8,336 nt of DNA from a virus (lineage: Duplodnaviria; Heunggongvirae; Uroviricota; Caudoviricetes). The translations under genes were made by a program, and so were the position numbers. Under the pieces are notes generated by a model. The model was not told the DNA's origin. It made no database searches and worked only from the letters and a program-made list of their open reading frames with translations. The stretch lies in IMG/VR virus record IMGVR_UViG_2778261169_000006, one strand, 5' to 3'. Of this stretch, positions 5,689-7,960 are shown piece by piece. Position 1 is the stretch's first letter. Each line of letters starts with the position of its first letter.

Positions 5689-5740
5689 TACTGTGTTTGT
5701 ATACAGTATTATTTTTAACTGTATGGATAAACAGTGTCAA
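5689..5740 (-). promoter_or_regulatory. SOS-regulated promoter of the dinI-like gene: two LexA boxes and a -35 TTGACA
   Basis: Box 1 TACTGTGTTTGTATACAGTA (5689-5708, 17/20 to consensus). Box 2 AACTGTATGGATAAACAGTG (5717-5736, 15/20). Minus-strand -35 TTGACA (plus 5735-5740) overlaps the integrase stop codon; candidate -10 TAAAAA (plus 5712-5717) with 17-nt spacer. Confidence 0.7.
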
Positions 5741-6834
5741 GAGGTCTTATTTCTGCTCCTTTGGAGCTCTTCAAAACGATTATGTAAAGATTTCGGATAC
5801 AGTTCGGTATATACCTGCCATAGCACGTTTAATGAACGATGCCCTGTAACCTGAGCGACTTCCTCAATACTAAAACCAGCCTCAAATAAGCGACTTGCCC
5901 CTTCTCTACGCAAATCATGGTATCGCAGATCTTTAATACCTAATTTGCTTCTTACCCTCTGAAATCCTGCAGTAACAGAAGTGCTGTTATATGGAAAAAT
6001 GAATTCCGATTTTTTGGGCTGTCGTTGGACGATATCCCAGGCTTCCCCAAGCAAGGCTACTTTCATGTGGTTGCCTTCCTTTTTGCGTGGATCTTTCCTG
6101 TCTCTTACGAGTATAGATTTTTGTTCCTGGTCGAGATCTTCCCATCGTAACCGGCATACTTCTCCGATCCGCATACAGGACCACACAGAAAATTTGAGGA
6201 TATCAACGAACGGAATTTTTGAGCATTTATGAGTAGATCGTTGTTGAAGGCCTTCAATGAGCATGTCCAGTTCATCAGATGCTGGTCTACGATTACGACG
6301 GTTTGATTTACCAATCAAACCAAGTTTAAGTAGATATGGGCGAGCGCTTTTCGCTGGGTTTGATGTGTAATTAATTCCATATACAGGTTTGGCAGCATCC
6401 AGAACACTGCCAAGATAACTAACATCGTGGCTAACTGTAGCTGGACCTGCACCAGCGTTGTTTCTTAGCCTGCAATGTTCAATTACGTCATTTTCTGTCA
6501 GTTCAGATAGTTTGATCGCGGAGATGTCACTATCCATAAGCAGTTCCAGCACATATCTTTTAGTACGGCCTGCTTTACCTCCGGCATTTGGGTCATTTAA
6601 ATATTTGTGTAGTAAGTCACGGACTGTAAGTCCGTCAACTGCATTTGATGATGGAATGCCATATAGATCTAATTCCATCACTTTCTGTGTGCCCCATGTT
6701 TTGGCATGAGCATGTTTAGGGAATGTTTTGCTTTCCCTGTAAGTGATAACACCTTTTTCTTTGATAATCACATTACAGCGATAGCGTGGTGTGCCATCGG
6801 ATTTTAGTCGTTTCTCTATGTTATAGTACGCCAT
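5737..6834 (-). CDS. int: Tyrosine site-specific recombinase / phage integrase, 365 aa
   Basis: C-terminal catalytic signature: MRIGEVCRLRWEDLD (box I Arg), HDLRREGASRLF (HxxR), GHRSLNVLWQVYTELY (His/Trp and Tyr nucleophile). GAGG SD 9 nt upstream of ATG (plus 6832-6834). Gene start abuts dusA. Confidence 0.85.
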   Translation of the reverse strand: MAYYNIEKRLKSDGTPRYRCNVIIKEKGVITYRESKTFPKHAHAKTWGTQKVMELDLYGIPSSNAVDGLTVRDLLHKYLNDPNAGGKAGRTKRYVLELLMDSDISAIKLSELTENDVIEHCRLRNNAGAGPATVSHDVSYLGSVLDAAKPVYGINYTSNPAKSARPYLLKLGLIGKSNRRNRRPASDELDMLIEGLQQRSTHKCSKIPFVDILKFSVWSCMRIGEVCRLRWEDLDQEQKSILVRDRKDPRKKEGNHMKVALLGEAWDIVQRQPKKSEFIFPYNSTSVTAGFQRVRSKLGIKDLRYHDLRREGASRLFEAGFSIEEVAQVTGHRSLNVLWQVYTELYPKSLHNRFEELQRSRNKTS

Positions 6835-6853
6835 TACACGACCTCGTTATTTC

Positions 6854-6890
6854 GGGTTCCCATAAAACGTGGGAACCTGTACGGGAACCT
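6854..6890. repeat. Cluster of GGGTTCCC / GGGAACCT 8-mers between int and dusA (candidate integrase-binding or att-associated sites)
   Basis: GGGTTCCC at 6854-6861 is the inverted complement of GGGAACC(C); direct copies of GGGAACCT at 6871-6878 and 6883-6890, each preceded by ACG. Three related sites within 37 bp, just upstream of the int start. Confidence 0.35.
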
Positions 6891-6922
6891 AACGCGAGAA
6901 AAATAGCCTGAAATGTTCAAAA

Positions 6923-7960
6923 ATGCACGATAATCATGAAACACAAAAAATTAATCAAACCAGCGTGATGCCTGAAAAAACTGACGTTCACTGGAGTGGT
7001 CGGTTTAGCGTTGCACCAATGCTCGACTGGACGGACAGACATTGCCGCTATTTCTTGCGTCTGCTTTCCCGCAATACGTTGCTGTATACCGAAATGGTGA
7101 CCACAGGGGCGATTATTCACGGTAAAGGTGATTATCTGGCGTACAGTGAAGAAGAACATCCGGTAGCGTTGCAACTGGGCGGTAGCGATCCGGCGGCGCT
7201 GGCGCAGTGTGCAAAGCTGGCAGAAGCGCGCGGATATGATGAGATCAACCTGAATGTCGGCTGCCCGTCTGACCGGGTGCAGAACGGCATGTTTGGTGCG
7301 TGTCTGATGGGTAATGCGCAGCTGGTTGCCGACTGCGTGAAAGCGATGCGCGATGTGGTGTCGATTCCGGTGACGGTGAAAACGCGTATTGGCATCGACG
7401 ACCAGGACAGCTATGAATTTCTCTGCGATTTCATCAATACCGTTTCCGGCAAAGGCGAGTGTGAGATGTTCATCATCCACGCACGTAAAGCCTGGCTTTC
7501 GGGGTTAAGCCCGAAAGAAAACCGTGAAATCCCGCCGCTCGATTATCCGCGTGTGTATCAACTGAAGCGTGACTTTCCGCATCTGACAATGTCGATTAAC
7601 GGTGGTATCAAGTCGCTGGAAGAGGCCAAAGCACACCTGCAACATATGGATGGCGTGATGGTCGGGCGCGAGGCGTATCAGAATCCGGGTATTCTGGCGG
7701 CGGTAGACCGGGAGATCTTTGGTTCCTCGGATACCGATGCCGATCCGGTGGCGGTAGTGCGCGCCATGTATCCGTACATTGAGCGTGAACTCAGCCAGGG
7801 GACGTATCTCGGCCATATTACCCGGCATATGTTGGGCTTGTTCCAGGGTATTCCTGGCGCGCGGCAGTGGCGGCGTTATTTAAGTGAAAATGCCCATAAA
7901 GCGGGTGCAGACATTAATGTGCTGGAACACGCGCTCAAACTGGTGGCGGATAAGCGTTAA
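6923..7960 (+). CDS. dusA: tRNA-dihydrouridine synthase A
   Basis: 345-aa ORF with Dus-family features ([54 protein letters not shown]), matching E. coli DusA as I recall it. Start codon uncertain (no clear SD before ATG 6923; in-frame ATG at 6968). Confidence 0.9.

Follow-up and report, generated by a model that had tools for sequence, protein, structure and literature searches.

The IMG/VR virus record IMGVR_UViG_2778261169_000006 (Duplodnaviria; Heunggongvirae; Uroviricota; Caudoviricetes) is represented here by a stretch of 8,336 nucleotides, hereafter the window, in which a tyrosine integrase gene (int) and the dihydrouridine synthase gene dusA lie back to back. The window most probably represents the integrase-proximal junction of a temperate prophage integrated site-specifically into the 5' part of Escherichia coli dusA, a reading to which we attach a probability of roughly 0.93 on the basis of sequence comparisons. 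Next to int, the phage attachment site (attP) carries the spacer and a 96-bp copy that resembles the dusA 5' end, and then the core ATGCTCGA. The integrase would exchange strands within this core, in the codons of the conserved APMLD motif. Codons 1-32 of the native gene, with their promoter, would stay at the far prophage end, and the phage 5' copy would fuse in frame to codon 33 onward to give an intact 345-aa DusA. The features that make up the junction are as follows:

5737-6834, minus strand: tyrosine integrase open reading frame (ORF) of 365 aa, with its ATG at 6834-6832, from the ORF list and Pfam.
6835-6922, unstranded: int-dusA spacer of 88 bp, all phage DNA and one attP arm.
6923-7960, plus strand: intact dusA ORF of 345 aa, from the ORF list and Pfam.
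6923-7018, plus strand: element-supplied 5' end of dusA, codons 1-32, contained in the phage attP.
6923-6967, plus strand: visibly phage-type part of dusA, which differs from K-12.
6968-7018, plus strand: part of the element-supplied segment that is identical to K-12 in the alignment.
7019-7026, plus strand: attachment (att) core or crossover region ATGCTCGA, codons M33-L34-D35 of the conserved APMLDWTD motif.
7027-7960, plus strand: host-derived remainder of dusA, codons 35-345, 100% identical to K-12 and missing from phage genomes.

An initial annotation of this DNA had placed the int start 88 bp from the dusA start, with the two genes divergent, and both the ORF coordinates and the Pfam identities agree with that geometry. 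The integrase contains a Phage_integrase domain (PF00589, E 1.1e-20, residues 189-346). Its motifs MRIGE at 221, HDLRR at 306, GHRS at 331 and VYTE at 341 fit the R..H-x-x-R..H..Y pattern, and R222, H306, R309, H332 and Y342 were assigned from the motif positions as putative catalytic residues. The product of dusA is covered by the Dus domain (PF01207, E 8e-105) over residues 30-340. Among 5426 complete E. coli genomes, the int-dusA junction was found in 734 (coverage of 80% or more of the query 5600-8336), and all 5426 matched the dusA-pspG part of the window. In parallel, 34 of 52 loci from other species showed an integrase relative upstream of dusA in divergent orientation. Since so many genomes and loci share this arrangement, the adjacency of int and dusA is not a matter of chance. 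The distance from int to the dusA start is 87-89 bp in most Enterobacterales loci.

The sequences of free phages bear directly on the origin of the dusA 5' end. Phages mEp460, Lys8385Vzw, SKA5, phi1720a-02, phiSTEC1575-Stx2k and others show 97-99% identity over window 5737-7026; the match stops at 7026-7028 and the rest of dusA is missing from them. In mEp460, int is followed by the same spacer, the dusA-like start ATGCACGATAAT, the core and then the DNA that is seen at the far prophage end. The spacer is nearly unchanged in the free phages mEp460 and Lys8385Vzw. Because free phages hold int, spacer and dusA-like 5' end as one attP, the segment 6835-7018 is phage DNA. The earlier proposal that the dusA promoter region and N-terminal codons are element-derived is borne out by their presence in the attP of these phages. 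As a side observation, the 8-bp core ATGCTCGA is tandemly duplicated in the attP of the Lys8385Vzw record (MT225100.1, locus L006, about 2780-2800); the duplication is genuine or else was created artificially when a prophage sequence was circularised at its repeats.

Comparison with a strain lacking the element had been suggested as a check, and K-12 served for this purpose. In the K-12 locus (L001), yjbL/yjbM and zur precede dusA. When the window and K-12 were anchored at the start codon, no relation was observed upstream of about 6919. Nine mismatches were present, all at 6930-6967, and identity reached 100% across 6968-7960. A short 5' segment that is similar but not identical, followed by perfect identity, is the signature that a replacement 5' end would leave. 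Instead of a collinear locus with a junction far from dusA, the alignment revealed a divergence inside the 5' part of the gene, where the core also lies, and no collinearity upstream.

The initial annotation had left two places for the att junction, the int-dusA spacer and the 5' part of dusA. A junction in the spacer, with the entire dusA ORF as host DNA, would fit the return of K-12 similarity at about 6919, a few bases ahead of the ATG, but the phage genomes run to 7026, the segment 6923-6967 has nine phage-type differences from K-12, and hosts with an unrelated dusA 5' end show a clean junction at 7019-7026. Similarity to K-12 begins at 6919 because the K-12 dusA 5' end is itself element-like, and we regard a spacer junction as highly improbable. 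The proposal stands for the 5' part of dusA and had to be given up for the intergenic spacer, phage sequence reaching 7026 with the core at 7019-7026. The range of 5737-6970 first given to the feature was also too short, as the core in codons 33-35 lies beyond its end.

The other end of such a prophage can be observed in close relatives. The junction of strain NRZ95651 is 100% identical to window 5600-8336, and its prophage of about 44 kb has at the far end a 105-bp pseudogene that its annotation calls a truncated tRNA-dihydrouridine synthase, beside yjbM and zur. This far fragment is the displaced native dusA 5' end, identical to K-12 up to the equivalent of 7026, and is followed by phage DNA; the two NRZ95651 junctions share a 59-bp direct repeat that corresponds to 6968-7026. 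The initial annotation had asked for a duplicated core at the other prophage end, and it is present in relatives, as the 59-bp repeat of NRZ95651 and as an 8-bp repeat in strain 104 and in Escherichia sp. MOD1-EC7003 (L007), the window's own far end lying outside the window. In the source strain, the far junction would be expected to consist of a K-12-type dusA 5' fragment ending in ATGCTCGA, then TAGGATGTACC.

The position of the crossover could be narrowed with lysogens in which phage and host sequences are distinguishable. The mEp460, Lys8385Vzw and L007 copies differ from the host at several positions within 6984-7018. At the int-side junction of L007, whose integrase is 99% identical to that of the window over 359 aligned residues, phage-type bases extend to 7018 and host sequence is found from 7027. 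Moreover, 21 lysogenic genomes have a host background in which the dusA 5' end bears no relation to the phage copy. In one of these, strain 104 (L061), the only sequence common to the bacterial attachment site (attB), the two junctions and attP is ATGCT[C/T]GA. Because the L007 and strain 104 junctions confine the crossover, the exchange is placed within 7019-7026, about 100 bp inside dusA. The attP core of mEp460 has an inverted repeat, TCCTA/TAGGA, that frames TGCTCGA. In agreement with this placement, phage phi1720a-02 was reported to integrate 100 bp into dusA through a 7-base core within attB GCTCCCATGCTCGACTGGA, and experiments in Citrobacter rodentium described an in-frame phage-encoded dusA' and attP regenerated in vivo (Balasubramanian 2019).

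The attB of S931B-type genomes (L005:3009-3016), which have another dusA 5' end, contains the core TGCTTGA and not TGCTCGA, and both strain 104 junctions carry the T. That this mismatch blocks integration into such ancestral-type dusA genes was considered and ruled out, as the 21 genomes have the predicted junction there. The arm type of this phage was found in 21 of about 1123 ancestral-type genomes versus 339 of about 4300 K-12-type genomes, a comparison confounded by phylogeny.

In the window lysogen itself, the exchange can be placed only within the 59 bp of 6968-7026, because this interval is identical to K-12. One explanation is that the last exchange in this lysogen came about by homologous recombination or by gene conversion, in place of integrase-mediated exchange at the core, and joined the phage dusA-like segment to the K-12-type host 5' end, about 80-90% identical to it, somewhere in 6968-7018. 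The sequence of this interval equals K-12 and has nine differences from the int-side junction of L007, which is of the same phage type; the attP copies of mEp460 and Lys8385Vzw also differ from the window across it, and the direct repeat measures 59 bp in the window and NRZ95651 versus 8 bp in L007 and strain 104. However, an attP variant already made host-like in an earlier lysogenic cycle, followed by ordinary integrase-mediated integration, would give the same sequence, and NRZ95651 is host-like at both junctions, as the model of a host-like attP predicts. Conversion is on balance unlikely.

One conserved feature stands out within the start of int:

6819-6827, plus strand, toward dusA: candidate extended -10 element TGTTATAGT, the reverse complement of int codons 3-6, from comparative conservation.

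The motif TGnTATA[GA]T, exact or slightly altered, was observed in 20 of 20 Enterobacterales int-dusA loci, codon 5 of int varying (N, S, T), and it includes an invariant Ile ATA codon of int. Upstream of int-less dusA genes, TGCTATAGT or TGGTATAGT was found in E. coli S931B, Salmonella Infantis and K-12. The window dusA is presumably transcribed from a phage promoter, for which TGTTATAGT is the candidate.

The leader that follows is also constrained in an unusual manner. Across 26 dusA genes adjacent to int, drawn from many genera, the reading frame that begins at ATGCAC has no stop and always runs for 30 codons before APMLDWT; the element-type leader begins with M-H-[DEGQ]-N and is otherwise highly variable. 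This constant length with a free sequence favours translation from 6923 over Met16. A start at Met16 (6968), suggested by the 331-aa annotation of S931B, was rejected for element-type genes in view of the 30-codon open frame in the 26 loci. An in-frame ATG between the ATGCAC start and the APM motif is absent from some loci, L010 among them.

Several observations weigh against the reading of the window as a junction of a temperate prophage in dusA. The segment 6968-7018 of the window is host-like, with nine differences from the sequenced attP copies, and a sigma-70 consensus scan that required a -35 element found no plus-strand promoter. Pairing of the left and right junctions (attL/attR) is shown in relatives only, because the far prophage end lies outside the window and the best coverage of the window by any complete E. 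coli genome is at most 65%; no genome spans the whole window since the tail-fibre region is mosaic. That region, upstream of the junction, looks mosaic and partly truncated, on which ground the prophage may be defective.

The last point raises the question of a fossil junction, in which int would be intact but would no longer mobilise a defective prophage. The similarity of a 214-aa ORF at 4517-5161 is confined to the N-terminal portions of tail-fibre families with much longer members, relatives of the tail-fibre region carry insertion sequence (IS) elements and pseudogenes, and clear int fossils are present at dusA in Salmonella houtenae and diarizonae. On the other hand, the window int is full length and its product is 100% identical to the Lys8385Vzw integrase, the spacer repeats and core are intact, and a loss of mobility would concern activity only and leave the nature of the junction unchanged. 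A fossil junction is accordingly a possibility that we consider doubtful, and the prophage at dusA is presumed still able to excise.

The spacer contains short repeats that belong to the same conserved architecture:

6855-6889: three GGGAACC copies, inverted at 6855-6861 and direct at 6871-6877 and 6883-6889, the last two 12 bp apart; candidate arm-type sites.

No further copies of GGGAACC occur in the 8.3-kb window, and the other attP arm of mEp460 holds two more (GGGAGCC, GGGAACC). In other genera the same three-copy layout was found at the same offsets from the int start with the lineage-specific words GGGGTGCTG, TGGTGTAC and GGTGTCCT. The exact three-copy pattern was present in 14 of 32 spacers, and by eye several others (e.g. 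L007, L008) have imperfect copies. In L007, paired changes affect both inverted arms, at 6858 and 6874. Since the repeat words co-vary with the integrase lineage, the GGGAACC repeats are candidate arm-type binding sites, probably for the integrase or an accessory protein.

The comparison with K-12 raises a further possibility about the host. The promoter region and first 32 codons of K-12-type dusA are rather likely to be the relic of an older dusA-targeting island, of which the yjbL-yjbM segment would be the remnant. The K-12-type locus, shared by about 79% of complete E. coli genomes, may not be an untouched empty site. Another dusA 5' end was found in 1123 of 5426 E. coli genomes (e.g. S931B), with a 16-residue leader, MPAESHTVYPAYRFSI, and zur directly upstream. 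It is identical to that of Salmonella Infantis at 61 of 96 nucleotides and shares the same upstream motif; K-12-type and S931B-type 5' ends agree at 42 of 96, which is chance level. The K-12 5' end is identical to element-borne copies at 78-87 of 96 nucleotides and possesses an element-type 30-residue MHGN leader. In annotations, DusA measures 345 aa in the K-12 type versus 331 aa in the S931B type. Furthermore, a K-12-specific 1.7-kb yjbL-yjbM segment (L001:1406-3091) stands in place of 133 bp in S931B. Its G+C content is 35% versus 51-52% in the flanks, its end lies no more than 8 bp from the att core, and similarity to S931B resumes at the equivalent of window 7011. The upstream gene beside ancestral-type dusA is zur in E. 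coli and STM4242 in Salmonella. In E. coli, the ancestral state would be zur next to dusA, a 16-17-residue leader and the promoter-like motif TGCTATAGT, and these 1123 genomes, as well as Salmonella, would have kept it.

Alignment of the K-12 sequence upstream of dusA to the spacer of the element and the beginning of int gave scores without significance (local z 2.8; global z 1.6, a value that 79 of 1000 shuffles attained), so that the argument for a relic rests on the coding leader, the core boundary and base composition. A tblastn search with the integrase gave no match in the K-12 or S931B loci. It is also possible that phages captured a host 5' end, which would speak against a relic. Literature searches on dusA/integrase/prophage and on yjbL/yjbM/dusA returned no description of a K-12 dusA relic. 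If the K-12 5' end is a relic, an earlier element had already altered the site that present phages use, and the similarity of about 80-90% between the phage copy and the resident relic would account for the long 59-bp repeat in the window. The N-terminal extension and promoter of the reference DusA may then be derived from a mobile element, and the replacement of a 5' end at integration could permanently rewrite the start of a host gene.

Eroded insertions were seen in Salmonella. In S. houtenae (L060, about 2450-2700) and S. diarizonae (L057), only about the first 30 int codons are left, beside a dusA 5' end of the element type. The S. houtenae leader has ATA in place of its ATG, and the gene that lies there between STM4242 and dusA, for a zinc-dependent alcohol dehydrogenase, is likely cargo.

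Integrase relatives with 58-65% identity were also found with no dusA within 3 kb, in loci from Xenorhabdus, Serratia and Pseudomonas lundensis (L025, L027-L029, L031-L033, L035, L036, L049). Judged from ORF reading, the downstream host genes there resemble srmB, pgl, upp, a sensor kinase gene, an NlpC/P60 lipoprotein gene and pyrD. These loci retain the spacer repeats and the first part of a dusA-like leader, AAATGCA[CT][GTA]AAAAT, which suggests that they are retargeted descendants of dusA elements.

The remainder of the window lies on the other side of int and is of phage character. Next to the integrase gene is found:

5427-5675, minus strand: DinI-like gene (Pfam DinI, E 1.2e-19), part of a conserved prophage-end module dinI-int.

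A DinI-like gene beside int is also present in mEp460, Lys8385Vzw, NRZ95651 and strain 104. Relatives also encode a PrtN-like excisionase. Tail-fibre genes, one of them lambda-type, lie beyond the integrase. Between them, at 3934-4505 on the plus strand, an 84-aa ORF of unknown function (phrog_3893) overlaps a 116-aa ORF for a UmuD-like S24 peptidase (phrog_3469, E 1.7e-46), an unusual place for an SOS-type gene pair. The 214-aa ORF at 4517-5161 (plus strand) is glycine-rich, and the following 265 bp or so (5162-5426) hold no confident gene. At the position of 4517-5426, strain 104 and H31 have a pin-type invertase and tail-fibre assembly genes, so an invertible tail-fibre segment may have been lost from the window prophage.

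For annotation, the prophage boundary belongs at 7019-7026 inside dusA and not in the spacer, and the first 32 dusA codons in such lysogens are phage DNA. In a review on Shiga toxin (Stx) phages, yjbM, zur and dusA appear as three distinct insertion sites (PMC8065619). The far end of a dusA-integrated prophage is flanked by yjbM in a K-12-type background or by zur in an ancestral-type background, and at least some of the reports on these three sites may describe one att site.

The integrase belongs to a documented group. The initial annotation had invoked an integrase family that targets the dusA 5' end and supplies a replacement for it, and such a family was defined as the dusA-associated integrases (DAI), tyrosine recombinases located beside the dusA 5' end (Farrugia 2015, PMC4482086). 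According to the same study, DAI islands show semiconserved att repeats in the conserved dusA 5' region and an island-derived 5' end, islands of Acinetobacter baumannii and Pseudomonas protegens excise as a circle with restoration of the native dusA, and the closest characterised relative of the family is the shufflon recombinase Rci. The family hits include the integrases of mEp460, BcepIL02, DC1 and H66, Escherichia being an over-represented genus. The window int region has 97.5% DNA identity to mEp460. Over more than 93% of its length, the integrase is 36% identical to that of Burkholderia phage BcepIL02 (E 7e-58), 34% to that of Burkholderia phage DC1 and 35% to that of Pseudomonas phage H66; identity to integrases in phage or prophage records of Salinivibrio, Vibrio, Shewanella and Pseudoalteromonas is 50-56%. 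Judged by all the testable features of the family, namely a catalytic domain, homology to named members, a place at the dusA 5' end and a replacement 5' end, the window integrase is a DAI member at the level of sequence.

The nearest known systems are the E. coli phages mEp460, Lys8385Vzw and, of the Stx2 type, phi1720a-02 (KF030445.1), which carry the same spacer, dusA-like 5' end and core as the window. They differ from it by at least nine positions at 6968-7018, where the window is K-12-like, and the window prophage is otherwise mosaic relative to mEp460-type phages, its tail-fibre region being different. In strain 104, this int module is found together with a set of genes for a contractile tail. 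The DAI islands of A. baumannii D1279779 and P. protegens Pf-5 resemble the window in having a tyrosine recombinase at the dusA 5' end and a replacement 5' end, a likeness that follows their published description, whereas the window integrase is only 34-36% identical to the DAI of Burkholderia and Pseudomonas phages. Since the DAI family (Farrugia 2015) and the same site for phi1720a-02 (Balasubramanian 2019) are published, integration into dusA, the integrase family and this phage module are already known. The window is a textbook-quality case of this documented integration system, and the finding itself adds little new.

A more distant parallel is the general design of the attachment site. 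In phage lambda, the integrase is heterobivalent and attP contains core-type and arm-type sites. The mEp460 attP has a lambda-like layout, by resemblance only, with the core TCCTA-TGCTCGA-TAGGA, a 7-bp overlap, and three plus two GGGAACC copies on its arms. Unlike lambda, this system targets the interior of a protein-coding gene, and its attP supplies that gene with a functional replacement 5' end.

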